DNA of 32,000 nucleotides from Rhodobacter capsulatus SB 1003 (GTDB lineage Bacteria > Pseudomonadota > Alphaproteobacteria > Rhodobacterales > Rhodobacteraceae), in NCBI RefSeq assembly GCF_000021865.1, contig NC_014035.1, positions 100,963-132,962 on the forward strand, in the 5' to 3' direction. Shown in pieces: positions 1,852-28,062 of this stretch. The notes below the pieces were generated by a model. That model did no database searches. It saw nothing but the letters and a program-made list of their open reading frames with translations, and was not told the DNA's origin. Within the stretch, counting starts at the first letter, position 1, and each line of letters starts with the position of its first letter. The translations under genes and the position numbers were made by a program.

Positions 1852-2421
1852 TCAGGCCGCGGTGGCGCCGCGGGCGCGGAGGATCGGCCAGGCCCGCTTG
1901 ACCGACAGCGCGACCGCGGCGGTGATCCCCGCCTTGACCAGATCGCCCGGGATGAAGGGGGCGGATCCCAGCGCGGCCGCCTTGAGCGACAGCCCCGCCT
2001 GTACCGCCAGCACCGGAACGCCGAGGCCATAGAGCACGACGATGCCGCCGATCGTGGCAAAGACGAACGAGCGGAGCGCGGTCAGGCGTTTCCAGCCCAG
2101 CTCGTGCAGCAGGCCGGTCACATAGGCGGCCGGGATCCAGCCCAGCAGGAAGCCGACCGTCGGCCCGGCAAAGACGCCCAGCCCGCCGCGCCCGCCCGAC
2201 AGGATCGGCAGCCCCAAAGCGACCAGCACGACGACAAGCCCCATCGCCAGCGCGCCGCGACGGGCACCGATGACCGCGCCCGCGAGCATCGGCCCCATCG
2301 ATTGCGCGGTGATCGGAACGCCGATCAGCGGCAGGGTGATCGGCGGAAACAGCGCCAAAGCGGCCGTCAGCGCCGCGAAAAGCGCGATCAGGACGATGTC
2401 GCGGGTGGAAAGGGAAGTCAT
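1852..2421 (-). CDS. bioY: Biotin ECF transporter S component BioY
   Basis: 189-aa hydrophobic protein with BioY-family sequence (ITAQSMGPMLAGAVIG..., GGRGGLGVFAGPTVGFLLGW). It is the last gene of a bioM-bioN-bioY arrangement. Confidence 0.9.
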   Translation of the reverse strand: MTSLSTRDIVLIALFAALTAALALFPPITLPLIGVPITAQSMGPMLAGAVIGARRGALAMGLVVVLVALGLPILSGGRGGLGVFAGPTVGFLLGWIPAAYVTGLLHELGWKRLTALRSFVFATIGGIVVLYGLGVPVLAVQAGLSLKAAALGSAPFIPGDLVKAGITAAVALSVKRAWPILRARGATAA

Positions 2422-2443
2422 CGCAGGGGTCCTTCGGAGGGGG

Positions 2444-3037
2444 TTATCGGGAAATGGCGGCGCCGTCGTGATGACCGGACCGGGCCTCGATCGCCTCGGC
2501 GACCTCGTCGGCGGTCTTGAGAACGCGCAGGATCAGCGGCAGGATCAGCGCCAGAGGATGGGTGCCAAGACCGCGCGCCGCCTGGGCTTCGCGCACCCGC
2601 AGCGCCTCGTCGCGGATCACCGGCAGGAAGCGCAGCGCCAGCGCCAGCGCCAGACCGACCTTGGCCGGGTTGACGCCGAGCGGCGCCAGCGGGGCCAGCA
2701 GCCGTTCCAGCGTCGCGATCAGATCTTCGGTGCGGGTGGTCAGGGTGACCAGCGCGGCGAGCAGGATCAGCGTCAGGATCCGCAGCACGACCAGCGCGGC
2801 CAGGCTCCAGCCCGCCAGCCAGCCCTGCACCGGAAAGAGGATCGCCAGCATCCACAGCAGCGGCGCGACCTGCGCCCGGATCTGCGCGCGGCCGAAGCCC
2901 GCCAGCCGGAAGCCCGCCAGCGTCAGCGCCAGCGCGGCCAGCATGATCGCGGGCGCTTCGACCAGCATCAGCCCGGTTCCGGCCAAGGCCAGCGCGGCCA
3001 GTTTCGGTCCCGGCGGGCAGCGGTGCAGGGGGCTCAT
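2444..3037 (-). CDS. bioN: ECF transporter transmembrane (T) component BioN (CbiQ/EcfT family)
   Basis: 197-aa membrane protein with a C-terminal ...ALRFLP...EA..ARG... EcfT-type signature. Its ATG overlaps the bioM stop (ATGA) and it lies between bioM and bioY. Confidence 0.85.
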   Translation of the reverse strand: MSPLHRCPPGPKLAALALAGTGLMLVEAPAIMLAALALTLAGFRLAGFGRAQIRAQVAPLLWMLAILFPVQGWLAGWSLAALVVLRILTLILLAALVTLTTRTEDLIATLERLLAPLAPLGVNPAKVGLALALALRFLPVIRDEALRVREAQAARGLGTHPLALILPLILRVLKTADEVAEAIEARSGHHDGAAISR

Positions 3038-3795
3038 GTCATCCGCTCCACATAGGACCGCAGCGCCGGGCCGGGTTCATCATCGGCGACGATCCGGCCC
3101 TGATCAAAGACCAGCACGCGGTCGAAACCGGCCAGCAGCGGCAGGTCATGGGTGACGACGATCGCCGTCTGTGCCAGATCGGCGATCACCTGCCCGATCC
3201 GGCGGGCATTGCGCAGATCCAGCAGCGTCGTCGGCTCGTCGAAGACGATGCAATCGGGCGCGGTGATCAGCACGCCCGCAATCGCCAGCAGCTGTTTTTG
3301 CCCGCCCGACAGCCGATGCGCCGGGGCCTGGCGCAGATCGGCCAGGCCGAAACGGTCAAGGATCGCGGTGACTTTCGCGGCGCGCTCCGCCGCGCCGGAC
3401 TTCTGGCCCTTGAGTCCGAAGGCGATGTCTTCCTCGACCGTGGGCAGGACGATCTGGGTATCGGGGTTCTGAAACACGAAGCCGACCTTGCGCCGTACCG
3501 CCCTGGCCTCGCGGGCGGTCTCCAGCCCGTCGATGCGCACCGTGCCGCGGTCGGGCAGCATCAGCCCGTTCAGCAATCGCGCAAACGTGCTTTTGCCCGA
3601 CCCGTTCGCGCCGACGATGCCAATGCGCCGCTCGGTCAGGGTCACGGAGATCCCGCGCAGCACGTCGCGCCCGTCAAAGCTTTGAAAAACATCGGAAATT
3701 TGTATGGTGGTGGGTGCCGCAGGCAGGGAAGGAAGGGCACTGCCTGCGGCGCCTTGCAACCGCAAGCTGCTGGCGACAATACTTGAAACCATCAT
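3034..3795 (-). CDS. bioM: ECF transporter ATPase BioM (ABC ATP-binding protein)
   Basis: Walker A GANGSGKST, signature LSGGQKQ, Walker B IVFDEPT. The start is uncertain: the ORF is open to GTG 3837, and ATG ATG at 3795/3792 is the last start upstream of the ABC core. The N-terminal ~35 codons are compositionally atypical and contain a 14-bp hairpin. Confidence 0.85.
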   Translation of the reverse strand: MMVSSIVASSLRLQGAAGSALPSLPAAPTTIQISDVFQSFDGRDVLRGISVTLTERRIGIVGANGSGKSTFARLLNGLMLPDRGTVRIDGLETAREARAVRRKVGFVFQNPDTQIVLPTVEEDIAFGLKGQKSGAAERAAKVTAILDRFGLADLRQAPAHRLSGGQKQLLAIAGVLITAPDCIVFDEPTTLLDLRNARRIGQVIADLAQTAIVVTHDLPLLAGFDRVLVFDQGRIVADDEPGPALRSYVERMT

Positions 3796-3862
3796 CGGTT
3801 TGCCCCATTTCACTTGTGGTTGCATGGTTCTGGTCACTCGGTTGGACGTTCCGCCAAGAAAA

Positions 3863-4624
3863 TCAACCGAAGAGAGCGGCGAGGGTCATGTAACCGACCG
3901 AGGGCACCATCAGGCAGCCGAAGCCGGTGTAGAAGGTCGCCGTCAGCGCGCCATAGGGCACCAGTTTCGGATCGGTCGCGGCAAGGCCCGCGCTGACACC
4001 GCTCGTCGTGCCCATCAGACCGCCGTAAACCGCCGCCGCCGCAGGCGTCGTCAGCCCCGCGGGTTTCGCCAGAAGCGGCGTCAGGATCATCACCGCGATG
4101 GATTTCACCACACCGGCCGCCACCGAAAGCGCGATCACCTCCGACGAGGCGCCAAGCGCAGCCCCGGTCACCGGACCGACGATGAAGGTCGTCGCCCCGC
4201 CGCCGATCGTCGCCATGTCGACCACGCTCGTATAGCCGAAGGCATAGGCCACCGCCGCGCCGATCGCGGTCGAGATGATGACCGAAATCACCAGCGCGAT
4301 GCCGCCCGCCAGACCGGCTTTCTTCACCTCTTCCAGTTTCACCCCGAAGGCGGTCGAGACGATGGCGAAATCGCGCAGCATCGCGCCGCCCATCAGCCCG
4401 AAGCCCGCGAACAGCGAGACATCCGAAATGCCCTTGCTGCCGCCGGTGACCTTGCCGCCGATATAGGCCAGCACCAGCCCCGCGACGATGGCGATGGCCG
4501 AACCGTGGATGCGGTTGTTGACCAGTTTGCCGATCGCATAGGAAATCCACATGATCACGCCGACGATGGCGAAGGCGGTGATCAGCGGCAGTTTTTCCAG
4601 CGTCCCAACAATGATGTCGAGCAT
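3863..4624 (-). CDS. madM: Malonate transporter subunit MadM
   Basis: 253-aa polytopic protein of the MadM family. ATG at 4624 is preceded by AAGGAG and sits 1 nt after the madL stop. It is paired with madL, as in the Malonomonas rubra mad cluster. Confidence 0.9.
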   Translation of the reverse strand: MLDIIVGTLEKLPLITAFAIVGVIMWISYAIGKLVNNRIHGSAIAIVAGLVLAYIGGKVTGGSKGISDVSLFAGFGLMGGAMLRDFAIVSTAFGVKLEEVKKAGLAGGIALVISVIISTAIGAAVAYAFGYTSVVDMATIGGGATTFIVGPVTGAALGASSEVIALSVAAGVVKSIAVMILTPLLAKPAGLTTPAAAAVYGGLMGTTSGVSAGLAATDPKLVPYGALTATFYTGFGCLMVPSVGYMTLAALFG

Positions 4625-4625
4625 G

Positions 4626-5027
4626 TCATTTTGCTCCTTGCGCAGCGCGTTTGGCCGCGTCTTCGGTTTCGGCGGTGCCACCAAGCGCCGCCAGCGGACG
4701 GATCAGCAGGAAGCCGGCAACAACCGGCAGGAAACCGGCGATGAAGGCCATGGTGCCCGCATCGAAGGCCGCAACGACGTTCTGGCTGGCCGCCATGGCG
4801 ACGACGATCGGAATATACATCGCCGACCAGAATTTGATGCCGTCCTGCGCCAGTTCCGACATCCGCTCGCGGTCGATGAACCAGCGCGAGATGACGACCA
4901 AAAGCAGCATCGCGATGCCGACGCCGCCCACGTCGGCATCGATGCCGACCATGTGCCCGATCAACTTGCCGATGATCACGCCTGCGATCAGGCAGCCGCT
5001 CATCAGCGAGACCCCGTAAATCAACAT
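4626..5027 (-). CDS. madL: Malonate transporter subunit MadL
   Basis: 133-aa hydrophobic protein of the MadL family. A strong RBS (AAGGAGGA) lies upstream of the ATG at 5027. Confidence 0.9.
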   Translation of the reverse strand: MLIYGVSLMSGCLIAGVIIGKLIGHMVGIDADVGGVGIAMLLLVVISRWFIDRERMSELAQDGIKFWSAMYIPIVVAMAASQNVVAAFDAGTMAFIAGFLPVVAGFLLIRPLAALGGTAETEDAAKRAAQGAK

Positions 5028-5058
5028 GTCTTCTGTCCTCCTTGATCGGCGGAGAAGA

Positions 5059-5079
5059 GCGCCTGCCCCGTGCAGGCGC
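5059..5079 (-). terminator. Stem-loop between madF and madL (possible attenuator or partial terminator)
   Basis: GCGCCTGC (5059-5066) and GCAGGCGC (5072-5079) form a perfect 8-bp stem with a 5-nt loop. The minus-strand RNA continues UCUUCUCC, followed by the madL RBS. Confidence 0.35.
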
Positions 5080-5093
5080 CCGTCCGCCTGTCC

Positions 5094-5303
5094 TTATTCG
5101 ATGATCATGATCACCGCACCGGGTTTCAGACGGTCGCCCGGGTTGACGGCGATCGACTTCACCGTGCCGTCGATCGGCGCGGGGGTGTCGTTCTTCATCT
5201 TCATCGCCTCGACGACGGCGACGCATTGCCCCTTGGTGACGGTGGCGCCCACCGCGACCTCGATCGAGACGATCACCGAGGGCATCTTCACTTTCACATC
5301 CAT
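5094..5303 (-). CDS. madF: Biotin carrier protein of malonate decarboxylase (minimal biotinyl domain), MadF-like
   Basis: 69-aa protein with the canonical biotinylation motif EAMKM (VAVVEAMKMKND). It overlaps the upstream gene's end by 10 nt. Confidence 0.85.
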   Translation of the reverse strand: MDVKVKMPSVIVSIEVAVGATVTKGQCVAVVEAMKMKNDTPAPIDGTVKSIAVNPGDRLKPGAVIMIIE

Positions 5304-6046
5304 TGCCTTTTCCTTTCTGGCTGTTTGATTGGGTGTTGCGGGTCGGGCCGCGCCGGGGGCGGGGCCTCGAAAAGGGAGATCAGGTGGGGGCGCTCGATCA
5401 GCTCGACGCCGGTGATGGTCTTGCCCAGCACCGAGCGCGCCCCCGACAGAAGTTCGGTCAGCTTGACGCCGATGCCGCCGGGCAGGGCGACTTCGGCATC
5501 GACCGCCAGGCCGCGCCGTTTCGCCAGCGTGGCCAGCATCGTTGCCAGTTGTTCCAGCGCGCGCAGGCTCTCGGCGCGGACCACCAGATCAAGATCGGAG
5601 TCCGGGCGCAGATAGGGCAGGCCGGTCACCGTCTGCAGCGCGGCCGAGCCGATCAGGCCGATCTCGACCCCGGAGAGGGCGCCTGCGCGGGCGATCTCGG
5701 GCAGGGCGGGATGCAGGTTCGGGCCGAGGATCAGGGCGCGGTCCATCACCTCCCAGGGGGTGAAAAAGGCCGAAACCTGGCCGCGCCGCACCGGCACCGC
5801 GGCGCGCACCCGTTCGGCGCCGTGGCGGAACGGGAAGGAGAACCCGAGCTGGCCGCCGCCATCGGGGCAGGGGCCGGTGGGACGGCAGACGATGCCGGGG
5901 ATATGCGCCTTGCTCATCGCGTCGCGCACCAGCTTGCGGGTGCCGGGGTCGCGCATCTGCTCGGGCAGCGCGTCAAGAACCGCGGCCAGGATGCCCGGGC
6001 GCGAGGCGGGCGAGACATGGGCAAGGCTGTGACGGATGCGGAACAT
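5294..6046 (-). CDS. madK: Malonate decarboxylase holo-ACP synthase (phosphoribosyl-dephospho-CoA transferase), MdcG/MadK family
   Basis: Contains the MdcG-family core ...GS.AL...G..YL...SDLDLVVRA.... Its ATG lies 1 nt after the upstream stop (TGAGATG). Confidence 0.8.
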   Translation of the reverse strand: MFRIRHSLAHVSPASRPGILAAVLDALPEQMRDPGTRKLVRDAMSKAHIPGIVCRPTGPCPDGGGQLGFSFPFRHGAERVRAAVPVRRGQVSAFFTPWEVMDRALILGPNLHPALPEIARAGALSGVEIGLIGSAALQTVTGLPYLRPDSDLDLVVRAESLRALEQLATMLATLAKRRGLAVDAEVALPGGIGVKLTELLSGARSVLGKTITGVELIERPHLISLFEAPPPARPDPQHPIKQPERKRQWM

Positions 6047-6047
6047 C

Positions 6048-7133
6048 TCAGCGCCTCTTGATCCAGGCGGGGTCGGTCTTGGCGCTTTGCGCCATGTCGC
6101 GCTGCGCGGTGACCAGCGTGTCGAAAAGCACCGTCGCCTCCGGGCCTTCGATCACGATCGGCGCGGCCCGGCCAAGCGCGGGCACCAGTTCCAGCCGCGT
6201 CGCCCCGGCCCCCACCGTCAGACCCTGCGCCACCTTCACCACCCGGCTCTTGATGCGCAGGATGGTGCGGGCGGTCTTTTCGATCACCTCGGCGGCGGTG
6301 GCGGGGGTATGGGTGACGATCACCTCGTATTCCGGATAGGTGCGGGCGCGGCGATAGGTGATGATCCGCCCCGCGCGGTCGCAGACATGCCCGGCGTCGG
6401 ACACGACGAAACTGTCGCCCATCGGCAGACCGCCCACGACCAGTTCCCGCCAGGGATCGCCCAGAGGCGAGGGGACCAGCGAAATATCGGCGCGCAGCGG
6501 GCGGCCATCCAGCACCAGCCAGCCGAATTCCTGACAGCCGTAAAGATCGTGCACGGCATAGCCAAAGGCCTCGGCCACCGGCAAAAGCTCGGCATCCAGC
6601 GGCGTTCCGGCACACAGAAGCACGCAGCCCTGCGGCATCCGCGGCTTCAGATCCAGCCGCAGGGCCTGTTCCAGCGTCGCGCGCAGGAACGAGGATTCGC
6701 CAAGGATCAGCCGCGGCTGCTCGCGGCAGGCGGCCAGCAACAGCGCATCGCGGCTGGAGCGTTCCAGATGCGACCAGACCAGGCCGCAGCCCTCAAGCGC
6801 CTGTTTTGAAAACACATTCACCAGCGGCGGATAGGTGACAAGCATCCGTTCGCCCGCCGGGATCTGCAGCCGCCCGAAAATCTCCCGGGCGACTGCATTG
6901 CGGTTTTCCAGCTCGGCATGGGTCACGCCGACGATGGTCTGAAAGGCCGACGATCCGGTGGTGAAGGTCAGATAGGCCAGATTGAAGGGGGTGTGGACCT
7001 CCTCGATCACATGCGCCGCGGTGGGGCCCGCGATGCCCTTGTGCGCCAGCGTGCGGCGGGGCATTTCCGCCAAAGTCGGCACCGCGCCTTGCAGGCTCAG
7101 CGCGTCTTCGAGGGCTTTGAGATCGTCTGACAT
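6048..7133 (-). CDS. madH: Adenylate-forming (PaaK/F390-synthetase-like) enzyme at the madH position; putative ACP-SH:acetate ligase
   Basis: FTTGSS nucleotide-binding-type motif and overall ANL/PaaK-like layout. No CitC-type HxGH motif was seen. Function is inferred from its position between madD and madK. Confidence 0.55.
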   Translation of the reverse strand: MSDDLKALEDALSLQGAVPTLAEMPRRTLAHKGIAGPTAAHVIEEVHTPFNLAYLTFTTGSSAFQTIVGVTHAELENRNAVAREIFGRLQIPAGERMLVTYPPLVNVFSKQALEGCGLVWSHLERSSRDALLLAACREQPRLILGESSFLRATLEQALRLDLKPRMPQGCVLLCAGTPLDAELLPVAEAFGYAVHDLYGCQEFGWLVLDGRPLRADISLVPSPLGDPWRELVVGGLPMGDSFVVSDAGHVCDRAGRIITYRRARTYPEYEVIVTHTPATAAEVIEKTARTILRIKSRVVKVAQGLTVGAGATRLELVPALGRAAPIVIEGPEATVLFDTLVTAQRDMAQSAKTDPAWIKRR

Positions 7134-7167
7134 CTTCGTCTTCCTTTGGCCGTCGGTCTTTCGGGGC

Positions 7168-8061
7168 TCAGCGGCTGGGCGCGTAGCGATCCGCCACGGC
7201 GGCGAAATCGCGGCTCATCATCTCGATGACGCGGGGACGCTCGATCCGGCCGCCGCGGGCTTCGCCCAGCTTGCCGCGGCCCCAGGGGCCAAGATCGTCC
7301 TGCCGTCCCTCCAGCTTCGCGGCCCGGACCTCGGCGATCCGCGCGACGATGGCGGGGCGCATGCCATCGAGCGTCTCGACCAGCGCCTCGACGCCGCCAA
7401 GCGAGTGGAAGAAGCGCGGACCGGCGGCAAAGACGGCGCTTTGCTTCGACAGGACTTCCAGCGTTTCCAGATCCTTGCGGATGATCCGCGAGACCGAGGT
7501 CAAGGGCATCACATGGATCATCGTGCCGAATTGCGCATCGAGCGACAGGATCGCATCGGCCTGCAGCCCGTGGCACAGGAACGCCCCCGAGATCGCCCGG
7601 CCGATCACCATGGCGATGATCGGATGGCCCTTCAGCCGCGCCTCGGCCAGCGCCAGCTGATAGGCGGCGGTCGATTTGTTCATGCCGAAGATTTCCTCGA
7701 CCTTGCCCGGGCCGTTGCCGGGGGTGTCGACGATCAGCACCAGCGGCCGTTTTTCCGCCAGCGGCTTTTCGGCATCCTCGATGATCGAGGCATAGACCGC
7801 CTCGGCCATCTTGTAGCCTTCCTCCAGCCCGATGATCCCGGCGTAGACCACCGGGAATTTCTCGTTCATCGCGCCGCCATCCGAGGCGATGATCGTGCAG
7901 ACCGTGCCTTGCAGCGTCGCGGTGCCGACGACCGCGCCCGGCCCGAATTCGGGATCGTCGAAGCTTTTCGCCCCCACGGTGCCCTCGGCGAAGCTGCCCG
8001 CATCGACGATCATCTCGATCGCGTCGCGGCCCCGCCCCATCATGCTTTCCTGCATGTCCAT
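7168..8061 (-). CDS. madD: Malonate decarboxylase carboxyltransferase subunit (MadD; MdcE/gamma-like, AccA-type half)
   Basis: AccA-like carboxyltransferase sequence (LVLIVDTPGNGPG...IIAMVIGRAISGAFL). It lies directly downstream of the MdcD-like subunit. Confidence 0.85.
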   Translation of the reverse strand: MDMQESMMGRGRDAIEMIVDAGSFAEGTVGAKSFDDPEFGPGAVVGTATLQGTVCTIIASDGGAMNEKFPVVYAGIIGLEEGYKMAEAVYASIIEDAEKPLAEKRPLVLIVDTPGNGPGKVEEIFGMNKSTAAYQLALAEARLKGHPIIAMVIGRAISGAFLCHGLQADAILSLDAQFGTMIHVMPLTSVSRIIRKDLETLEVLSKQSAVFAAGPRFFHSLGGVEALVETLDGMRPAIVARIAEVRAAKLEGRQDDLGPWGRGKLGEARGGRIERPRVIEMMSRDFAAVADRYAPSR

Positions 8062-8080
8062 GATTTTTCTCCTTTTCGGG

Positions 8081-9037
8081 TCAGACGGCGAGACGGCGCA
8101 CAGTGGCCAGAAACTCGGACAGGGGCAGGTCGATCAGCCCGTGGGCGTCAGTGTTGCCCGCCCGCGTCCAGACATCGGTCGCATCAGAGGGTTGCATCTC
8201 GGCCGCCAGCGCCACGGCGCGCAGCTGCGCCTTGACCTTGGCGGGCGAACCGATGCGGCGCATCTCCTCGAAGGCCTCGATCGAAAGCCCGGCCAGCGCC
8301 GAGACCTGCTCGCGGAAGGCCGCGACGGTGTTTTCGACCAGGAAATTCGCATCGCCCATGATGAACTTGTGCCGCCCGCCGGTGGTGCGGTAGACAAGCG
8401 CGCGGTCAGAGGCGTCGAATTCCTCCTTGCCCATTTCCTGCTCGATCACCTCGGGGCCGGTCAGGCCAAGGCGGCCGAATTCCGACATGATGATCACGTC
8501 GGTGGCGGCGGCGACGAAGCCCATCCCGCCAAAGGCGCCGACCTTGGAGCCGATCAGCGCGATCACCGGCACCTTGCCGCGGGCCTTTTGCAGCTGGTCC
8601 ATCACCTCGGCATGGGCCAGAAGCCCGGCGTTGGCCTCGTGCAGCCGCACGCCGCCGGTCTCGAAGGAAATCACCACGAGGGGCTTTTCCTCTTCGTCGA
8701 GGTCGTCGAATTGCGCCACAAGATCGTCATGGAAGTCGATCGCCAGCTTGATCGTGTTGACCATTTTCGCGCCGCCGATCTCGCCGACCGAGCCGCCGAT
8801 GAAGCGGCCTTCCTGCGAGATCACGAAAACGGGGGTGCGGCCGATCTTGCCGACGCCGGTGACGATGCCGTCGTCAAAGGCCACGGCATCGCCGAGCAGG
8901 GCCAGGTGCGGGCTGGTCACCCGGTCGAAGGGGCCGGCCAGTTCGGTGAAGCTGCCCTCGTCCACCAGACCGATGGCACGGTCGCGGGCCGAGGCTTCAA
9001 GGAAGCTGCGGGGTTGCAGGTCTGTCCAGTTGGTCAT
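8081..9037 (-). CDS. madC: Malonate decarboxylase carboxyltransferase subunit (MadC; MdcD/beta-like, AccD-type half)
   Basis: N-terminus RSFLEASARDRAIGLVDEGSFTEL is typical of MdcD. ATG at 9037 is preceded by GGAGAG. The 34-codon upstream extension in the ORF track is Arg-rich and unlikely to be translated. Confidence 0.9.
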   Translation of the reverse strand: MTNWTDLQPRSFLEASARDRAIGLVDEGSFTELAGPFDRVTSPHLALLGDAVAFDDGIVTGVGKIGRTPVFVISQEGRFIGGSVGEIGGAKMVNTIKLAIDFHDDLVAQFDDLDEEEKPLVVISFETGGVRLHEANAGLLAHAEVMDQLQKARGKVPVIALIGSKVGAFGGMGFVAAATDVIIMSEFGRLGLTGPEVIEQEMGKEEFDASDRALVYRTTGGRHKFIMGDANFLVENTVAAFREQVSALAGLSIEAFEEMRRIGSPAKVKAQLRAVALAAEMQPSDATDVWTRAGNTDAHGLIDLPLSEFLATVRRLAV

Positions 9038-9051
9038 CTCGTCTCTCCGCC

Positions 9052-9360
9052 TCAGGCCGCGGCCAGCGCCTGTTGCAGGCGCAACAGCACGACGGCGGGG
9101 GTGGCGTTGTTGTCGTTGATCTCGATGCGGGCGTCGCAAAGCCCGGACTCGTCGAGGAATTTCTGCAAGACGCGGGTCCAGAGCGCGTCAAAGCCGGTGA
9201 CGGGGGTGACCACGGTCACCGCGACGCGGCCCGAAAGGTCTTCGGGATGCATCATGATTTCCAGATCGCTGGATCCGGTGACGCCCACATGCAGGCGGGC
9301 TTGGATCTTCGTCTTCGGCGCGGCGGCGGCCAGATCCAGGGTGAGAGTGTGCAAGGCCAT
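9052..9360 (-). CDS. madE: Malonate decarboxylase acyl carrier protein (MadE/MdcC, delta subunit)
   Basis: 102-aa CitD/MdcC-like protein with the prosthetic-group serine region GVTGSSDLEIMM. Confidence 0.85.
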   Translation of the reverse strand: MALHTLTLDLAAAAPKTKIQARLHVGVTGSSDLEIMMHPEDLSGRVAVTVVTPVTGFDALWTRVLQKFLDESGLCDARIEINDNNATPAVVLLRLQQALAAA

Positions 9361-9374
9361 GATTTTGCCTGTCT

Positions 9375-11048
9375 TTACCAGTTGCGGAAGCGGGCGGGCG
9401 GGTTGTAAAGGCCGCCGGACCAGGTCACGAGATCGCGCATGCTTTTCGCGGCCAGCAGGTCGCGGTTGGCACGGGCGGGGTTGATGCCCAGATCGGAGAC
9501 GGTCTTGACGATGCCCGCCTCGCGCAGGGCGCGGGTTTCTTCGGGTTTCGCGGCAAGGCCGATGTCGGTGAAGCCCGCGACGGCGCGGATGGCGGCCATG
9601 CGGGCCTCCATGTCCTTGCAGCGGTTCAGGTAGGCGATGCCTTCCTCGGTGACGATATGGGTCAGGTCGTCGCCGTAGATCATCACCGGCGGGATCGGCA
9701 GATCGGCATCCCGCGCCAGTTTCCAGGCGTCAAGTTCGTCGACAAAGACCGGGGCACGGCCCTCGCCGAAGGTTTCAACCCCTTGCACCACAAGGCGTTT
9801 GCCGCGCGGCAGATTGCCGATGTCACGCTCGAGCGAGGGCAGTTCCTGGCCGCATTTCAGCCAGGCGTCGGTCGGGTGGCGCCGCCCCTTGGCATCGCAG
9901 CCCATGTTCGGCGCGCCGCCGAAGCCGGCCACCCGGCCCGCCGTCGCGGTCGAGGAGTTGCCGTATTTGTCGATCTGCAGCGTGCCGCCGATGAACATGT
10001 CGATGGCGTAATGCCCCGCCGTCTGGGCAAAGGCCCGGTTCGAGCGCAGCGAGCCGTCCGGCCCCACGAAGAACACGTCCGGCCGCGAGGCGACGTAATC
10101 TTCCATGCCCAACTCACCGCCGAAGCAATGGATCGTGTCGACCCAGCCTTCCTCGATCGCCGGGATCATGGTCGGATGCGGGTTCAAGATCATATGCGTG
10201 CAGCATTTGCCCTTGAGCCCCAGTTCCAGACCATAGGTCGGCAGGATCAGTTCAATGGCCGAGGTCAAAAAGCCGATGCCGTGGTTCATCGAGCTGACGC
10301 CATATTCGGCATAGATCCCCTTCAGGCACATCATCGCCAAAAGGATCTGGCTGTCGGTCACCAGCGCCGGATCGCGGGTGAAAAGCGGCTCGATGAAGAA
10401 CGGCTTCGGCGATTGGATCACCGCATCCACCCAGTCGCCCGGAATATCGACGCGCGGCAGTTCGTCAACGATTTCATTGACCTGCGCGATGACGATGCCT
10501 TCGCGGAACTTTGTCGCCTCGACGATGGCGGGGGTGTCTTCGGTGTTGAAGCCGGTGTAAAGGTTGCCCTTGCGGTCAGCCTTGTAGGCGCAGACGAGCG
10601 AGACCCGCGGCGTCAGGTCCAGGAAGTAGCGGCCGAAAAGTTCCAGATAGGTGTGGATCGCGCCCAGCTCGATCTTGCCATTGGCGATGAATTTCGCCAC
10701 CCGCCCGGCTTGCGGCCCGCCAAAGGCGAAGTCGAGTTTCTTGGCGATGCCGTTTTCAAAGAGATCCAGATGCGCGGGCAGCGGCACCGCCGATTGCACC
10801 ATGTGCAGGTCATGGATCTTGCCGCGGTCAACCTTGTTCAGGCATTCGGCCAGGAAGTCGGCCTGTTTCTGGTTGTTGCCTTCGATGTTGATGATGTCGA
10901 AGGGGCGGATCACCGCTTCCAGAAGCGCCACCGTATCCTTGGCGAGCACTTCCTTGCCCTTGACATAGAGGGGCGCTGCCGCCTCCTTGCGCGCGGCGGT
11001 ATCTTCCGCCCGCTTGCGCCAGCTGTTGCGCTTGTCTTGCTGCGTCAT
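9375..11048 (-). CDS. madA: Malonate decarboxylase alpha subunit (acetyl-S-ACP:malonate ACP transferase, MadA/MdcA)
   Basis: 557-aa protein with the length and sequence of the MdcA family, flanked by the other mad genes. Confidence 0.93.
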   Translation of the reverse strand: MTQQDKRNSWRKRAEDTAARKEAAAPLYVKGKEVLAKDTVALLEAVIRPFDIINIEGNNQKQADFLAECLNKVDRGKIHDLHMVQSAVPLPAHLDLFENGIAKKLDFAFGGPQAGRVAKFIANGKIELGAIHTYLELFGRYFLDLTPRVSLVCAYKADRKGNLYTGFNTEDTPAIVEATKFREGIVIAQVNEIVDELPRVDIPGDWVDAVIQSPKPFFIEPLFTRDPALVTDSQILLAMMCLKGIYAEYGVSSMNHGIGFLTSAIELILPTYGLELGLKGKCCTHMILNPHPTMIPAIEEGWVDTIHCFGGELGMEDYVASRPDVFFVGPDGSLRSNRAFAQTAGHYAIDMFIGGTLQIDKYGNSSTATAGRVAGFGGAPNMGCDAKGRRHPTDAWLKCGQELPSLERDIGNLPRGKRLVVQGVETFGEGRAPVFVDELDAWKLARDADLPIPPVMIYGDDLTHIVTEEGIAYLNRCKDMEARMAAIRAVAGFTDIGLAAKPEETRALREAGIVKTVSDLGINPARANRDLLAAKSMRDLVTWSGGLYNPPARFRNW

Positions 11049-11078
11049 TTGCTTTCGTCTTCCTCCTTCAGAGGGTTT

Positions 11079-11909
11079 TCAAAGGGTTGCCTGCGTCGCG
11101 GCGAGGGGGATCTCGCCGAAGATGACGCTGTGAAGGGTGCCGTCGGCGGTGCGCAGACAGAGCGCGCCATCCGGGCCAAGCGCCTCGGCGATGCCCTGAC
11201 GGGGGGCTTGCGGGGCGGAAAGGGTGACGGGCTGGCCCAGCGTGCAGGAGCGCACCGACCAGGCATGCCGGGCGGGCTCGAAGCCGAGGCGTTCCCATTC
11301 GGTCAGCCGGTGGTCGAGCCGTTCGACCAGCGCCGCGAAAAGATCGAAGCGGTCGACCTTGCGGCCGGTTTCGGCGCTGATCGAGGTGGCGATGGCTTGC
11401 AGCTCCGGCGGGAAATCCGTGCGGTTCTGGGCGATGTTGATGCCGATGCCCGCGATGATGTGATCCAGATCGCCTTCGGGGGTCAGCACCAGTTCGCACA
11501 GGATGCCCGAAAGCTTGCGGCCCGCGACCATCAGGTCGTTCGGCCATTTGATTTGCGGCGCAAGGCCCGTGCTGCGGGTGATGGCCTCGGCCGCGGCGAC
11601 GGCGATGACAAGCGTCACCTGCGCCAGATCGGCCAGAGGGCGGGAGGGACGCAGAAGCACCGAGGCGAGCAGGCTTTCCCCGGGACGCGAAACCCAGGGT
11701 CGGTCGTATTTGCCCCGTCCGGCCGTCTGATGATCGGCCAGAACGATGGTGCCCGTGGGCGCGCCCCTCCGCGCCAGACCGGCCAGGAAGCTGTTTGTGG
11801 AGGACAGAACGGGCCGGTGGTGGACCGCGCAGCCGATCCCGGTCCGACGCCGGACGGGAAGGGCAAGCGTCGGGAGGTTCGGGAGAAGATCGGGATGGTG
11901 CGCGGTCAT
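11079..11909 (-). CDS. birA: Biotin--protein ligase (class I BPL, no N-terminal HTH)
   Basis: Motifs HQTAGRGKYDRPW (GRGRxGRxW type) and IKWPNDL. 276 aa with no DNA-binding domain. It is embedded between madB and madA. Confidence 0.85.
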   Translation of the reverse strand: MTAHHPDLLPNLPTLALPVRRRTGIGCAVHHRPVLSSTNSFLAGLARRGAPTGTIVLADHQTAGRGKYDRPWVSRPGESLLASVLLRPSRPLADLAQVTLVIAVAAAEAITRSTGLAPQIKWPNDLMVAGRKLSGILCELVLTPEGDLDHIIAGIGINIAQNRTDFPPELQAIATSISAETGRKVDRFDLFAALVERLDHRLTEWERLGFEPARHAWSVRSCTLGQPVTLSAPQAPRQGIAEALGPDGALCLRTADGTLHSVIFGEIPLAATQATL

Positions 11910-11944
11910 GGGTTTGCTCCTGTGAGCGGGTCAGGGACGGTCGG

Positions 11945-13153
11945 TCAGTTGACCAGACCGATGGTCGAGGCGAAGACACCGACGGCGATGGCCGAGACGA
12001 TGACCCCGCAGATCGAGGCGCCCATGGCGAGCGGCATGATCATGGCGTGGGGGTTGGCTTCGAAGGCTTCCTTCTGGGCGATCTTCGCGGTCGAGGGCAT
12101 GCAGGAGACGCCGGCGATACCGATGACGGGGTTGTAATTGCCCTTCGACAGTTTCCAGACCAGATAGCCGCCGCCGATGCCGCCAAGCGCCGAGACGGCC
12201 AGCGCGGTGATGCCAAGGATCAGCAGCAGCGCGACTTGCGGATCAAGCAGGGTTCCGGCTTCGCACAGCGTCCCCAGCACCAGGCCCAGAAGCAGGGTCG
12301 AGGCGTAAGTGACGGTGTTTTCAAGGAACTTCTGGTAGGGCTCGATTTCCGCTTCCTTGATCGCGACGCCGAGGAAGAACGACAGGATCAGCGGCGTGGC
12401 GACGGGCAGCAGCAGGCACAGCAGACCGGCGGCAACCACGGTGAAGATGAATTTCGCCTGCGGCGTGACATCGGGGAAGTCGTAATCGACTTCGATGGCG
12501 CGGTGCTCTTCCTTGATCAGCCAGCGCACCAGATAGGGGTAGCCCGCATAGGTCAGCGACAGATAAAGATAGGCGATGATCGAGATCGGCACGAAGAGGT
12601 TCTTCGCCATCATCAGCGAGCCAAAGAGCACCATCGGACCATCGGCGCCGCCGATCGTGCCCACGGCCGCGGCTTCACCGGGCGTCAGGCCGCAATAGTA
12701 ACCGATCACCAGCGTCACGAAGGTGCCCAGTTCCGCGCAGACCGCGACCGCGATCGAGGCCCAGGGCCGGGCGAGGATGAAGGAAATGTCCGCCATCGTG
12801 CCGATGCCCATGAAGAGCATGCAGGCCACCAGCGAGTTGACGAAGGTGAAGTTGTAGATCGGCTGCAGGAAGTTGATCTGCATGATGTCCATGAGCGCAT
12901 TCGTCTCGGATACCAGGGGCGAGATCACCAGCGTGCCGACCTGGCCGCCTTCCAGGATCATCACGCCGGCGTTGACCGCCATCATGCCAAGGCCCATCGG
13001 CACCATGATCAGCGGTTCCAGCGTGCGCTTGAAGCCCAGATAGGCCAGCAGGAAACCAAGCCCGATGAACGCCAGACGGGCGAAGGAAATCAGCGGGTCC
13101 TGGATGAAGAGTGTCCCGATACCGGGAAAGATGTTGAACAGGGTCTCAAGCAT
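11945..13153 (-). CDS. madB: Na+-translocating decarboxylase beta subunit (OadB/MmdB family), MadB
   Basis: 402-aa polytopic membrane protein with OadB-family sequence throughout (MLETLF...LEPLIMVPMGLGMM...). Confidence 0.9.
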   Translation of the reverse strand: MLETLFNIFPGIGTLFIQDPLISFARLAFIGLGFLLAYLGFKRTLEPLIMVPMGLGMMAVNAGVMILEGGQVGTLVISPLVSETNALMDIMQINFLQPIYNFTFVNSLVACMLFMGIGTMADISFILARPWASIAVAVCAELGTFVTLVIGYYCGLTPGEAAAVGTIGGADGPMVLFGSLMMAKNLFVPISIIAYLYLSLTYAGYPYLVRWLIKEEHRAIEVDYDFPDVTPQAKFIFTVVAAGLLCLLLPVATPLILSFFLGVAIKEAEIEPYQKFLENTVTYASTLLLGLVLGTLCEAGTLLDPQVALLLILGITALAVSALGGIGGGYLVWKLSKGNYNPVIGIAGVSCMPSTAKIAQKEAFEANPHAMIMPLAMGASICGVIVSAIAVGVFASTIGLVN

Positions 13154-13162
13154 TTGAGCGCC

Positions 13163-13279
13163 TCAGGATGCGTTGGGAGAGGAGAGGAGTTTCGAGATGC
13201 CGACGATCACGCCGATCACCGCAAAGGAGATCGCGGCGGTGATCAGGTAGCTGAAGGCGGCATAGGTGATGATGTTCAT
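13163..13279 (-). CDS. 38-aa single-TM hydrophobic peptide (possible OadG-like accessory subunit)
   Basis: MNIITYAAFSYLITAAISFAVIGVIVGISKLLSSPNAS. Its ATG at 13279 is preceded by GAGG and starts 7 nt after the madG stop; its own stop lies 9 nt before the madB start. Its position immediately upstream of the beta subunit mirrors oadG-oadA-oadB logic. Confidence 0.45.
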   Translation of the reverse strand: MNIITYAAFSYLITAAISFAVIGVIVGISKLLSSPNAS

Positions 13280-13286
13280 GGATGCC

Positions 13287-14243
13287 TCAGGGGTTGCAGG
13301 GGGCGAAGGGCAGGGCCTCCGCGGGGAAGATCGGGGGCAGCTCGCCCCCGGAAAGCGCATCGACGCCAAGGGTCACGGCCAGAAGATCGGCCGCGCCGCC
13401 GGGGCTGATGTGTCGTTCGATGAACCGCGCATCGAGCGCGTGGATCGCCGCCAGCCCGTCGCCGGTCAGCGCGCCGCCAAGGGCGAGGATCTTGCGGGCC
13501 TCGGTCCGCATGAAGCTCAGCGCCGCGGGACCGCCGCGCCACAGCACGGTGGTGTCCTCGGTCTCGGCCATCAGCGCGATCAGCGTGTGGCACAGGCTGG
13601 TGGCCAGCGTCGCGCCGCTGGCGCGGGCGGCGCGCAGGGCGGGCAGGCCGTGGTTGCGCACGGTCGGATAGCCCGCCTCGGCCTCGCCGCGGATGCCAAG
13701 GACACCGTATTGACGAAACAGTTTCTCGCCCGCGGTTTCGGCCTCGCGGTGCAATCCGGCGCGCAATTCGCGGTCGCAGATCCCGGCGACCATCGCCGCG
13801 GCGGTGTCGAACAGCGCCGCCTCGGTCAGGTCGTCCCTGCGGGCGGCCAGCCCCGCCGCCGCCGCCAGCACGCCCGCCGAAAACAGCAGCCCGCGCTGGG
13901 TGTTGACGCCGCGCGTCGCGGCCAGAAGCCGGGCCTCGTAGATCTCGCCGATGGCGCGCACCCGGGGCAGCAGCGTCAGGGCCGGGCCGGCATGGTCAAG
14001 CCCGGCCTCCGCGCATTGGTAAAGACAGGGCGCAATCACCGCCGAAGAGACCATGAAGGTCTGCAGGTTCATGTCCCGATGCGCGCCGTTCGAGCGCGGC
14101 GTCACCAGACCGGGTTTGGGATGGGTGGAGATTTCCAGCAGCGCCCCGGTCAGGAAAGCCGATCCGATCGACCAGGCGCTGGTTTGCGGTGACAAGGCAA
14201 TGTCGCTGAACCAGTCCAGCGGCCTGCGCAACGCGTATTTCAT
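13287..14243 (-). CDS. madG: Triphosphoribosyl-dephospho-CoA synthase (MadG/MdcB, CitG family)
   Basis: CitG/MdcB core motif THPKPGLVTPRSNGAHRDM. ATG at 14243; the ORF is open to a TTG at 14261. Confidence 0.9.
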   Translation of the reverse strand: MKYALRRPLDWFSDIALSPQTSAWSIGSAFLTGALLEISTHPKPGLVTPRSNGAHRDMNLQTFMVSSAVIAPCLYQCAEAGLDHAGPALTLLPRVRAIGEIYEARLLAATRGVNTQRGLLFSAGVLAAAAGLAARRDDLTEAALFDTAAAMVAGICDRELRAGLHREAETAGEKLFRQYGVLGIRGEAEAGYPTVRNHGLPALRAARASGATLATSLCHTLIALMAETEDTTVLWRGGPAALSFMRTEARKILALGGALTGDGLAAIHALDARFIERHISPGGAADLLAVTLGVDALSGGELPPIFPAEALPFAPCNP

Positions 14244-14284
14244 GGGTTTCGTCCCGCGCAACTGACGGCAGCGCGGCGCTTCGT

Positions 14285-14299
14285 GAACGCCAGGCGTTC
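14285..14299. promoter_or_regulatory. 15-nt perfect palindrome GAACGCC-A-GGCGTTC about 40 nt upstream of the madG start
   Basis: Read directly from the sequence. It could be a protein-binding dyad or a small RNA hairpin next to the RBS. Confidence 0.3.
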
Positions 14300-14422
14300 C
14301 ACGGCCAATGCAGGGATTACCTCTGGTCGGGGAAACCGTCAGACATGCGCCACACCGATGTCACTTGCTCACGCGGCGCTTTGGGTTCGTCAGCCGTCGC
14401 AGCCCCACGCGGGCAGACGGCT

Positions 14423-14486
14423 CATCACGGGATCACGGCCCTGTCGGGCAGCTTCGCCTCACGTCCTTGTGATCGTTCGTGATCCG
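14423..14486. repeat. Four GATCAC-type hexamers arranged as two tandem pairs in inverted orientation
   Basis: CATCACGGGATCACGG (14423-14438) and GTGATCGTTCGTGATCCG (14469-14486). They can form two 6-bp helices (GATCAC:GTGATC and ATCACG:CGTGAT) around a ~32-nt loop. Confidence 0.7.
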
Positions 14487-14563
14487 AAGCATGGCAGCAT
14501 CGTTACGCCTGTCGCCCGGGCTTGTCCAGAAATCGTTTTCAGGGCGCAAGAGGCTGCGTCAAA

Positions 14564-14640
14564 GCGCCGCAGTTTTGCAGCTATTCATGGCAAAATCAAT
14601 GACTTGGCAAAAATGGAGCCAGCTTTGCAACAGCGGCGCG
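14564..14640 (-). promoter_or_regulatory. AT-rich core of the mad leader with nested dyads; candidate promoter/operator
   Basis: This is the only AT-rich stretch in the ~500-nt intergenic region. It is bracketed by GCGCCGC (14564-70) and GCGGCGC (14633-39). Inside are TTTTGC-N11-GCAAAA (14573-14595), GCAAA-N12-TTTGC (14607-14628) and two direct TGGCAAAA copies. Confidence 0.35.
14606..14621 (-). promoter_or_regulatory. Sigma-54-like -24/-12 element TGGCTC-N5-TTGCC facing the mad operon
   Basis: The minus strand reads TGGCTCCATTTTTGCC. The GG and GC dinucleotides are at the consensus spacing of TGGCAC-N5-TTGC. No enhancer-binding protein gene is present in the window. Confidence 0.2.
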
Positions 14641-14743
14641 CGGGAATTGGCCCGCGGCTTGCGGCTCGCGTTTTCGTCAACGGCGACAGGCGATTGCGGC
14701 GCGGCGGCAGGCCGGGCGGCAATCGCCATGCAGCCATGGAAGT

Positions 14744-15160
14744 CTAGATATGCATCACCCCGAAGCCGATGCGTTCGTGGTTCGTCGTGGGATGAAAGGC
14801 CGATTCGCCATGCGCGGCGACGGCGACCCAGTGCCCGTCCGAGACCAGCGCCACCTTGAGCTTGAGGTTCGATTCCGCCACCACCGTCGCCGAGACCCCC
14901 TGCAGGCATTCCAGCCCGGCGTGAATCACCCCGTGCACGGCGCCCGGGCGGTTGTGGATCACCCCGCCGTTCAGCGCACAGGCGACGATCGACTTGACGA
15001 AGCCCTTTTCGATTTCGGACCGCCGCCCGGTGACATAGGTGATCCCCACCTTCCAGGTCGGATGGGCCAGGATCTGCTCCTTGATCAGGTCTTCCTCTTC
15101 GCGGCTGCTGATGGCGGCCATGATGGCGGCCTTGCCGATTCTGTCTGCTGTGACTTGCAT
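14744..15160 (-). CDS. HutP-family protein
   Basis: The 138-aa protein aligns end to end with Bacillus subtilis HutP as I recall it: RIG near the N-terminus, WKV, GVI, HGVIHAGLECLQGV versus HALYHATMEALHGV, WVAV versus WIAV, and the C-terminal HERIGFGVMHI versus HETFGVGINHI. Confidence 0.8.
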   Translation of the reverse strand: MQVTADRIGKAAIMAAISSREEEDLIKEQILAHPTWKVGITYVTGRRSEIEKGFVKSIVACALNGGVIHNRPGAVHGVIHAGLECLQGVSATVVAESNLKLKVALVSDGHWVAVAAHGESAFHPTTNHERIGFGVMHI

Positions 15161-15265: not shown

Positions 15266-16504
15266 TCAGCCGTCGGGATCCGCCTTCACGAAGCGGCTCA
15301 TGGCGCTGCCGATGTCTTCGGACAGCCGCAGGATGGTCTCCAGCCGGGCCTTGATCTCGGCGTGAAACAGATCGAGCTGATCGATCGTCGAGACCAGACC
15401 GGCGCCGTTTTCGCGCAACCGGCCGCATTCGACGCGCCCCATCACCCGGATCGTGTCCAGACCCAGCATCAGCCGCCGGATCTCCGCGCTGGATCGGGCC
15501 AGCTCCTCGGCATGGCCGACCGCAGTCGTCAGCGCGGCATGGCTGTCGCGCCGGGTGGCGCCGCGTGCCTCGGCCAGTTTCGCGGCCTCGGTCTGCCAGT
15601 CCAGCCCGGGAACCGGCTCGGCCTGCCGGAAGGTCGCGATCATTTCCGCCATCACCCGATTGGCCCCCAGCAGGAAAAGCGCCCGCGCCACCTCGCGCGA
15701 GACGCGGTCGCACAGATTCTCCCGGCCGCTGACGAAACTGCGCAGCCGGTCCGAGATCACCAGGCTCGAGGCGCGGTAATTCTCGGAGATCGCCGAAACC
15801 GGCCCGCCCGAGGGTTCCAGCCGCGAGGCGACAAGGCGCATGTTGTTCGGGATCGACTGCAGCGATTCGAAACTGCGCAACAGCTTCTTCTGTTCCTGCG
15901 TCACCCGTTCGAGGGCCTCGTTCATCTCGATCAGCCGCCGGGTGCGCGGGTCTTCCGGGCGGCCAAGCCGATGGTCGCGCGCGGCCAGTTCCTGCCCCAA
16001 AGCGCTGGCCATGAAGGTGGTGTAGCTGGTGAATCCCGCCTCGGTGATGATCGTCCAGAGCCTGCGCGCGCTGTCGCCGGGATCCAGTCGCTCGGCGCGT
16101 TCGCGGGCCGCAAGCTCGGCATAGACCTTGCGGATCTGCGCGAAAAGCGGCGTCGAGGGCTTGAGACGGACCGACAGGAACCCGCCCTCGGTGGGCAGGA
16201 TCACCGCGAAGACCCAGTAGAAATCGCCATTGCGGGCGCGGTTCTTGACATAGCCGCCCATCGGAAAGCCGTTGCCAAGCGCATCCCACAGGATGCGAAA
16301 CACCGCACGGGGGGTGTCGGGGTGGCGGATGATCTTGTGCGGCGCGCCCAGAAGCTCTGACCAGGCGAAGCCGGAGACATTCTGGAAGACATCGTTGCCT
16401 GCCAGAATGACCCCGCGCGGATCGGTCCGCGAAAAGAAAAGATCGTCGAGTCGAAAATTGACCTCGCCCTCGGGCTGGCCGGAGAGATCGCGCTGATGAG
16501 TCAT
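15266..16504 (-). CDS. Soluble Aer-type PAS sensor protein with a degenerate MCP-signalling-like helical C-terminal region
   Basis: The N-terminus matches the Aer PAS domain (FFSRTDPRGVILAGNDVFQNVSGF...LLGAPHKIIRHPDTPRAVF..LW..L..G.P..GYVKNRARNGDFYWV). No TM segment is present. The C-terminus has two segments that only faintly resemble the MCP hairpin tip: IPNNMRLVASRLEPSGGPVSAISEN and IRVMGRVECGRLRENGAGLVSTIDQ. Confidence 0.75.
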   Translation of the reverse strand: MTHQRDLSGQPEGEVNFRLDDLFFSRTDPRGVILAGNDVFQNVSGFAWSELLGAPHKIIRHPDTPRAVFRILWDALGNGFPMGGYVKNRARNGDFYWVFAVILPTEGGFLSVRLKPSTPLFAQIRKVYAELAARERAERLDPGDSARRLWTIITEAGFTSYTTFMASALGQELAARDHRLGRPEDPRTRRLIEMNEALERVTQEQKKLLRSFESLQSIPNNMRLVASRLEPSGGPVSAISENYRASSLVISDRLRSFVSGRENLCDRVSREVARALFLLGANRVMAEMIATFRQAEPVPGLDWQTEAAKLAEARGATRRDSHAALTTAVGHAEELARSSAEIRRLMLGLDTIRVMGRVECGRLRENGAGLVSTIDQLDLFHAEIKARLETILRLSEDIGSAMSRFVKADPDG

Positions 16505-22792: not shown

Positions 22793-22861
22793 AAGCTTGC
22801 TCGGTCGACTTTGTTTGTTAAGCTGCCTAACTATGTAGTCGACCACCCGAAGGAGTCGACA
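22793..22861 (+). promoter_or_regulatory. AT-rich promoter region with three GTCGAC-centred boxes (candidate ROK operator)
   Basis: GGTCGACT (22803-10) and AGTCGACC (22837-44) are a perfect 8-bp inverted repeat 26 nt apart. A third copy, AGTCGACA, lies at 22854-61. The surrounding sequence (ACAATAAAAAGCTTGC...TTTGTTTGTTAAGC) is unusually AT-rich for this DNA. Confidence 0.4.
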
Positions 22862-22882
22862 CGGTCACGACGGGAGAGAAAG

Positions 22883-24139: not shown

Positions 24140-24154
24140 CCTTCGACACGACCC

Positions 24155-24180
24155 TCTCCCGCCGCGCCCGCGGCGGGAGA
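24155..24180 (+). terminator. Strong stem-loop after the SBP gene (intra-operon attenuator or mRNA stabiliser)
   Basis: TCTCCCGCCGCG-CC-CGCGGCGGGAGA is a perfect 12-nt inverted repeat, giving effectively an 11-bp stem with a 4-nt loop. No clear U-tract follows. Confidence 0.45.
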
Positions 24181-24233
24181 CCCGGCCTTCTCGACCGCCC
24201 CTTGCCGGGCGCCTTCACCCTCATGGGGGAACG

Positions 24234-25975: not shown

Positions 25976-25993
25976 ACCGGAGCACACGAAACC

Positions 25994-28035: not shown

Positions 28036-28062
28036 CCTATCGACAGCAGAAGGACCTCGACC

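Follow-up and report, generated by a model that had tools for sequence, protein, structure and literature searches.

Why would a facultative phototroph carry the genes for a sodium-pumping malonate decarboxylase? The question is raised by the mad locus of Rhodobacter capsulatus SB 1003, which lies in the 32,000-nucleotide stretch of DNA analysed here (the window; contig NC_014035.1, positions 100,963 to 132,962; the coordinates below count from its first nucleotide). The window is the final 32 kb of the 132,962-bp second contig of a 3.87-Mb genome made up of two contigs. The Na+-translocating, biotin-dependent malonate decarboxylase (EC 7.2.4.4) is encoded by the mad cluster of Malonomonas rubra (Berg, Hilbi & Dimroth 1997, as cited in PMC8085960), and searchable papers present it as a speciality of this organism and other anaerobes. 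We conclude that the R. capsulatus locus is very probably an intact operon for a biotin-dependent, membrane-bound enzyme of the M. rubra type. The analysis shows which genes are present, in what order and in what state, to which families they belong, that key residues are kept and that selection is purifying; the activities and the physiological role are inferred. The original prediction, made from the DNA letters alone, had recognized a complete cluster of this type and had described the enzyme as characterized biochemically only in M. rubra. In the searchable literature we indeed found no biochemical work on the biotin-dependent enzyme outside M. rubra.

Organization of the mad operon

Open reading frames (ORFs) were called on the window and assigned to families by Pfam and NCBIfam profile searches with curated cut-offs. 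The mad operon consists of 13 ORFs on the minus strand, from 14261 to 3863. Read from 5' to 3', the order is madG, a membrane ORF of 38 amino acids (aa), madB, a biotin-protein ligase gene and madA-E-C-D-H-K-F-L-M. Neighbouring ORFs overlap by up to 16 nt or stand up to 66 nt apart, and every reading frame is unbroken. The genes and coordinates listed in the original prediction were all recovered on the minus strand, the span of 14243 to 3863 that it gave running from the madG ATG to the madM stop codon. The profile check of each subunit that it had proposed assigned 11 of the 13 ORFs to families, in most cases above the curated cut-offs and with the malonate-specific MadB model among the matches. 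Profile searches of the genome's contigs found a single madB and a single mdcA.

We then compared the locus with the genome contig of M. rubra itself, which was reached through a 100% match to a protein named M. rubra DSM 5091 MadB by NCBI. This contig carries a HutP-like gene, madG, a small transmembrane (TM) ORF, madB-A-E-C-D-H-K-F-L-M and an EamA-type madN. The two loci are collinear, the HutP-like gene and the small TM ORF included, which bears out the gene order that the original prediction gave for M. rubra, and all subunits of the R. capsulatus set are intact. Protein identity is highest for MadA (71%), MadD (69%), MadB (66%), MadC (65%), MadM (61%) and MadH (56%), and lower for the small peptide (52%), MadL (50%), MadG and the HutP-like protein (46% each), MadE (44%), MadF (40%) and MadK (28%). 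Moreover, the Na+-site residues of MadB and the biotin motif of MadF are common to both organisms. The differences lie in the additions and in the host. M. rubra has no biotin-protein ligase between madB and madA, whereas R. capsulatus has one; the 3' end is occupied by the EamA-type madN in M. rubra and by bioMNY in R. capsulatus. Unlike M. rubra, R. capsulatus is a facultative phototroph, with the cluster on a small second replicon.

Predicted reaction cycle

By analogy with M. rubra, malonate would enter the cell together with Na+ through the transporter subunit MadL (4626-5027; PF03817 and TIGR00807, above cut-off) and the malonate/Na+ symporter subunit MadM (3863-4624; PF03818; TIGR00808, 346 bits for a cut-off of 236). 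Two enzymes would fit the acyl carrier protein (ACP) MadE (9052-9360; TIGR03130, 120 bits, cut-off 84) with its phosphoribosyl-dephospho-CoA arm. One is MadG, predicted to be the triphosphoribosyl-dephospho-CoA synthase that makes the precursor of the prosthetic group (13287-14261, likely ATG at 14243; CitG family PF01874, E value 3e-77; TIGR03132 (MdcB), 334 bits, cut-off 282), and the other is MadK, the putative holo-ACP synthase or phosphoribosyl-dephospho-CoA transferase (5294-6046; MdcG_N and MdcG; TIGR03135, 161 bits, cut-off 100). The small adenylating ligase MadH would prime the arm with acetate, and the acetyl group would be swapped for malonyl by MadA, the acetyl-S-ACP:malonate ACP transferase (9375-11048; TIGR01110, 936 bits, cut-off 789), with release of acetate.

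Malonyl-S-ACP's free carboxyl group would be passed to the biotin of MadF through the two carboxyltransferase subunits, MadC (8081-9037; Carboxyl_trans domain, NF005530 and TIGR03133) and MadD (7168-8061; PF06833 and TIGR03134). MadF (5094-5303; Biotin_lipoyl, E value 9e-17) is a free-standing biotin carrier protein of 69 aa, whose EAMKM motif contains the biotinyl-lysine candidate Lys35. Finally, MadB (11945-13153), a membrane protein of the OadB family (OAD_beta; TIGR03136, 793 bits, cut-off 597), would decarboxylate carboxybiotin and export Na+, probably together with the 38-aa peptide. The ligase encoded within the operon would biotinylate MadF, with biotin supplied by BioMNY. The gain for the cell would be acetate as a carbon source, drawn from malonate under anoxic, phototrophic conditions.

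MadH (6048-7133), a 361-aa protein proposed to acetylate the ACP thiol, gave no sequence match in Pfam, NCBIfam or the PDB, and its M. rubra homologue matches AMP-binding weakly (E value 1e-6). An AlphaFold model of the R. capsulatus protein was built on an alignment of 27 homologues, with a predicted local distance difference test (pLDDT) score of 82.5 and a predicted template modelling (pTM) score of 0.82, and was used for a Foldseek structure search. It matched the short adenylating ligases PaaK1 and PaaK2, together with other ANL enzymes, at a probability of 1.00 and E values of about 1e-9. The modelled fold thus agrees with the proposed role of an acetate:ACP ligase. As for MdcH, the malonyl-CoA:ACP transacylase that the original prediction had reported missing, none was found above cut-off in the whole genome; the best match, on the other contig, reached 201 bits for a cut-off of 298 and is taken to be a putative FabD-like protein. 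The locus therefore combines a putative priming ligase of the MadH type with the absence of the MdcH transacylase, as expected of the mad type.

The biotin-independent MdcABCDEGH system of Pseudomonas, Klebsiella and Acinetobacter (PDB 5vip/5vit/5vj1; PMC5534430) shares with the mad type the MdcA/MadA transferase, an MdcD/E-like carboxyltransferase fold, MadLM-type transporters and the machinery for the ACP prosthetic group (MdcB/MadG and MdcG/MadK). It differs in having no MadB, biotin carrier or MadH ligase, and in its use of MdcH. A tree was built from 49 MadA/MdcA sequences, 41 of them MadB-linked. All but one of these 41 grouped in a single clade, with a support of 99 in the Shimodaira-Hasegawa-like approximate likelihood-ratio test (SH-aLRT), and the MdcA proteins from seven alphaproteobacterial genomes without MadB fell outside it. 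R. capsulatus MadA falls in an alphaproteobacterial subclade (support 100) whose sister is a Raoultella/Klebsiella pair, the next group including M. rubra. The distinctness from the soluble mdc type claimed at the outset thus stands, on the presence of MadB and of a biotin carrier, the lack of MdcH and the placement of MadA.

The single MadB-linked sequence outside the clade comes from a Desulfuromonadales metagenome-assembled genome. There, MadB (63% identity) and the small peptide adjoin a MadA that groups with the mdc type (58% identity), and MadC is only 41% identical; the locus may be a hybrid arrangement.

The predicted MadB pump and a small membrane peptide

MadB was aligned to the structure of Salmonella OadB (6iva; E value 6e-38). 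Asp203 and Ser382 of OadB, which belong to the first Na+ site, correspond to D171 and S350 of MadB, and both are kept; replacement of either residue in OadB abolished Na+ binding (PMC7274780). Glu40, Tyr229, Asn373, Gly377 and Ser419 are likewise all kept, as E46, Y197, N341, G345 and S387. In 12 MadB proteins, these seven positions were invariant or nearly so.

The resemblance to the oxaloacetate decarboxylase Na+ pump OadABG (Salmonella OadB-OadG, 6iva/6iww; PMC7274780) is partial. OadB shares its seven key residues with MadB, and the small single-TM ORF ahead of madB is reminiscent of the pairing of OadB with OadG. However, OadABG uses its OadA subunit, whereas substrate delivery in the mad system runs via an ACP and a separate small biotin protein, and Asn412 of the second OadB site is not conserved in MadB proteins.

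The 38-aa ORF (13163-13279) has a single predicted TM helix and is separated from madG by 7 nt and from madB by 9 nt. It gave no Pfam match, and no similarity of its sequence to the OAD_gamma family (OadG) could be detected. A similar single-helix ORF of about 38-45 aa lies directly upstream of MadB at most loci examined, M. rubra (contig 3341-3439) and Klebsiella included, with the pattern Y..xTAxIS..V.G.IV..xNK across loci. Small single-helix ORFs also precede MadB-like genes at loci without malonate genes. Against R. capsulatus SP108, the ratio of nonsynonymous to synonymous substitution rates (dN/dS) of the 38-aa ORF is 0.08. The ORF evolves under constraint, and its product is a good candidate for a pump component that has not been listed before. 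The gene list madYZGBAECDHKFLMN, which we take to be the published one for M. rubra, omits it.

Possible fate of the sodium gradient

M. rubra lives on malonate decarboxylation, which releases about -44 kJ/mol, and feeds the resulting Na+ gradient to its ATP synthase (PMC8085960). The original prediction suggested Na+-motive energy conservation from malonate in R. capsulatus as well. The host genome contains a single F-type c subunit, which reads GVGHVV...FAEALGIF where that of M. rubra reads GIGQGL...MIESLAIY, so that His and Glu-Ala...Phe stand in place of Gln and Glu-Ser...Tyr. The Na+ signature of the c-ring work on Ilyobacter and Propionigenium, Gln in helix 1 and Glu-Ser/Thr...Tyr in helix 2, is thus absent, and the host ATP synthase looks H+-specific. 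One NhaA antiporter gene and one gene of the RnfD/NqrB family are also present in the genome.

Could the mad genes nevertheless support growth through the Na+ gradient, by decarboxylation phosphorylation, as in M. rubra? Na+ pump and Na+ symporter are complete, the reaction releases free energy, and NhaA could turn a Na+ gradient into a proton gradient. However, the only c subunit lacks the signature found in M. rubra; uptake costs one Na+ per malonate, and the number listed as pumped is also one (PMC8085960), which would leave a small net gain; and phototrophy or respiration gives a cell far more energy. We therefore consider growth by Na+-driven ATP synthesis unlikely in this host, and the suggestion of M. 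rubra-like energy conservation needs to be qualified.

Since the ATP synthase looks H+-specific, we favour another use of the pump: most likely, the Na+ exported by MadB would pay for Na+-coupled malonate uptake by MadLM, and any surplus would be exchanged for protons via NhaA. Taking this together with the small peptide, we speculate that the peptide, missing from the M. rubra gene list, works with MadB. In purple bacteria and other hosts whose ATP synthase is of the H+ type, pump and MadLM would then form a closed Na+ circuit that covers malonate uptake rather than ATP. This combined proposal seems to us plausible but somewhat short of probable. The locus also lends itself to asking what purpose a Na+ pump serves in a cell with a proton-using ATP synthase.

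Distribution and selection

The nearest named loci are those of R. capsulatus SP108 (MadB 98% identical) and SP36 (92%). The cluster is chromosomal in SP36 and on the small replicon in SB 1003. Compared with two R. capsulatus strains, all genes gave dN/dS values of 0.03-0.46, mostly 0.03-0.3, except MadF, which has almost no substitutions. On these values, the mad gene set is being maintained. Divergence from SP36 is mosaic at the protein level, the ligase being 74% and MadK 80% identical and MadA and MadD 99-100%, which suggests recombination within the operon.

MadB was found in none of 300 other genera of the same family. A sample of 400 species from the class likewise gave no MadB above cut-off, although seven of them carry mdcA. 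A protein search with MadB nevertheless returned thousands of relatives, many already named 'Na+-transporting malonate decarboxylase, carboxybiotin decarboxylase subunit' by NCBI, the R. capsulatus protein included. MadA lies beside MadB at about 45 of 80 fetched loci, with the whole set at most of those. MadB-like proteins below about 60% identity were rejected as malonate pumps; these proteins have no MadA nearby and are parts of other decarboxylases. Among the named carriers in the Alphaproteobacteria are R. capsulatus, Cereibacter (on a plasmid), Rhodospirillum rubrum, Rhodobium, Afifella, Roseospira, Rhodovastum, Rhodoplanes and Breoghania; many of these are purple non-sulfur phototrophs, a suggestive pattern. 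Outside the Alphaproteobacteria, mad loci occur in Phascolarctobacterium faecium, Propionispira arboris, Megamonas, Adlercreutzia caecimuris, Desulfovibrionaceae, Spirochaetota and Raoultella sp.

The original prediction had pointed to an occurrence outside the niche of M. rubra and had called for a survey of its distribution. That survey gave a divided answer: the cluster type is rare in the family and class of R. capsulatus, but complete sets are spread over many phyla and reach several purple non-sulfur genera, gut Negativicutes and a Raoultella, so that the occurrence is not exceptional. A curated equivalog exists, and the R. capsulatus protein had been named by NCBI. The kind of enzyme is already known: there are curated models, its genes are named in this species and it is spread over many phyla. 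The locus therefore reveals no new kind of enzyme. Its interest lies in a host open to experiment, in the additional genes for the cofactor, in the small peptide and in a Na+ pump that is at odds with an ATP synthase of the proton type. Indeed, R. capsulatus is easily grown and genetically tractable, which would make it a practical system for the study of the pump, the small peptide, the dedicated ligase and importer and HutP-type control.

A protein search of plasmids gave one record, a 5.4-Mb sequence of Klebsiella pneumoniae strain 176 that is mislabelled as a plasmid. The mad-type cluster in this record has a HutP gene and a LysR gene at the 3' end, and MadE, MadC and MadH are each split in two pieces in the assembly. 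This points to frameshifts or sequencing errors, and because of the splits the cluster is no proof of a working set. A megablast of the R. capsulatus cluster against plasmids returned short, distant matches only.

Evidence against and alternative explanations

Several points weigh against the locus being a working M. rubra-type operon. First, none of the MadB proteins compared keeps residues corresponding to Arg304, Asn311 and the second-site Asn412 of OadB, but M. rubra MadB is among these proteins. Their absence may fit the one Na+ per malonate listed in PMC8085960. Second, the NCBIfam equivalogs that MadC and MadD pass carry the name 'biotin-independent malonate decarboxylase subunit beta/gamma'. 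Third, the ion specificity of the host ATP synthase is a prediction from a sequence signature. Fourth, we found no paper on malonate use or mad gene expression in R. capsulatus or other purple bacteria. Lastly, rarity in the family and location on a small replicon could mean a recent, little-used arrival.

The last point leads to the explanation that the operon is a horizontally acquired passenger, silent or dispensable in its host. Its absence from the family genera and class species sampled, its change of replicon between SP36 and SB 1003 and the mosaic divergence between strains are what a passenger could look like. However, all 16 genes are intact and kept in three R. capsulatus genomes with mostly low dN/dS values, and the cluster carries its own regulator-like gene, ligase and importer. 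We regard a mere passenger as improbable.

It is scarcely credible that the enzyme is really soluble and biotin-independent, with MadC and MadD decarboxylating directly and MadB and MadF idle or serving another substrate, as the names of the two matched models might imply: MadC and MadD are close to the M. rubra carboxyltransferase, MadC reaches only 150 bits against Pseudomonas MdcD (PDB 5vip_B), MadB would find no second carboxyltransferase alpha subunit at the locus to work with and matches the equivalog specific for malonate, MdcH is absent, MadA belongs to the MadB-linked clade, and the operon comes with a biotin ligase and a biotin importer of its own. Since MadC and MadD pass 'biotin-independent' models, automatic annotation of this locus will contradict itself, and the pipeline names of these two genes are misleading in mad-type loci.

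Predicted cofactor supply and regulation, and neighbouring genes

The biotin-protein ligase of the operon (11079-11909; TIGR00121, 167 bits, cut-off 83; BPL_LplA_LipB and BPL_C) has no repressor, that is DNA-binding, domain. Downstream, on the same strand, bioM begins 25 nt after madM and opens the bioM-bioN-bioY set for a biotin importer of the energy-coupling factor (ECF) type (1852-3837; ABC_tran, CbiQ and BioY matches, the best NCBIfam ECF-ATPase match being below cut-off). As the chromosome encodes another biotin ligase and another BioY, the mad operon appears to carry its own cofactor supply. One of the two bioMNY/bioY sets has been studied by experiment. A ligase is embedded in many other mad loci as well, and bioMN homologues are found mainly at alphaproteobacterial ones.

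Upstream of madG, the HutP-like gene (14744-15160, minus strand; Pfam HutP, E value 1e-34) encodes a probable regulator, and a homologue stands beside nearly every mad locus tabulated, that of M. rubra included. A non-coding leader of about 480 nt (14262-14743) separates it from madG. No LysR- or GntR-type malonate regulator adjoins the mad cluster in the window, and a promoter and terminator scan of the locus gave nothing useful.

Further upstream on the same strand, a 412-aa protein (15266-16504) has an N-terminal PAS domain and no recognized output domain. On the plus strand, a sugar-type ABC transporter (binding protein, two permeases and a MalK-like ATPase) is followed by BadF/BadG-type kinase-like and SIS-domain genes (22811-29067), a set that is probably for amino-sugar utilization and unrelated to the mad operon. 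A two-domain gene of the chromate-transporter (ChrA) family lies at 16603-17967 on the minus strand.

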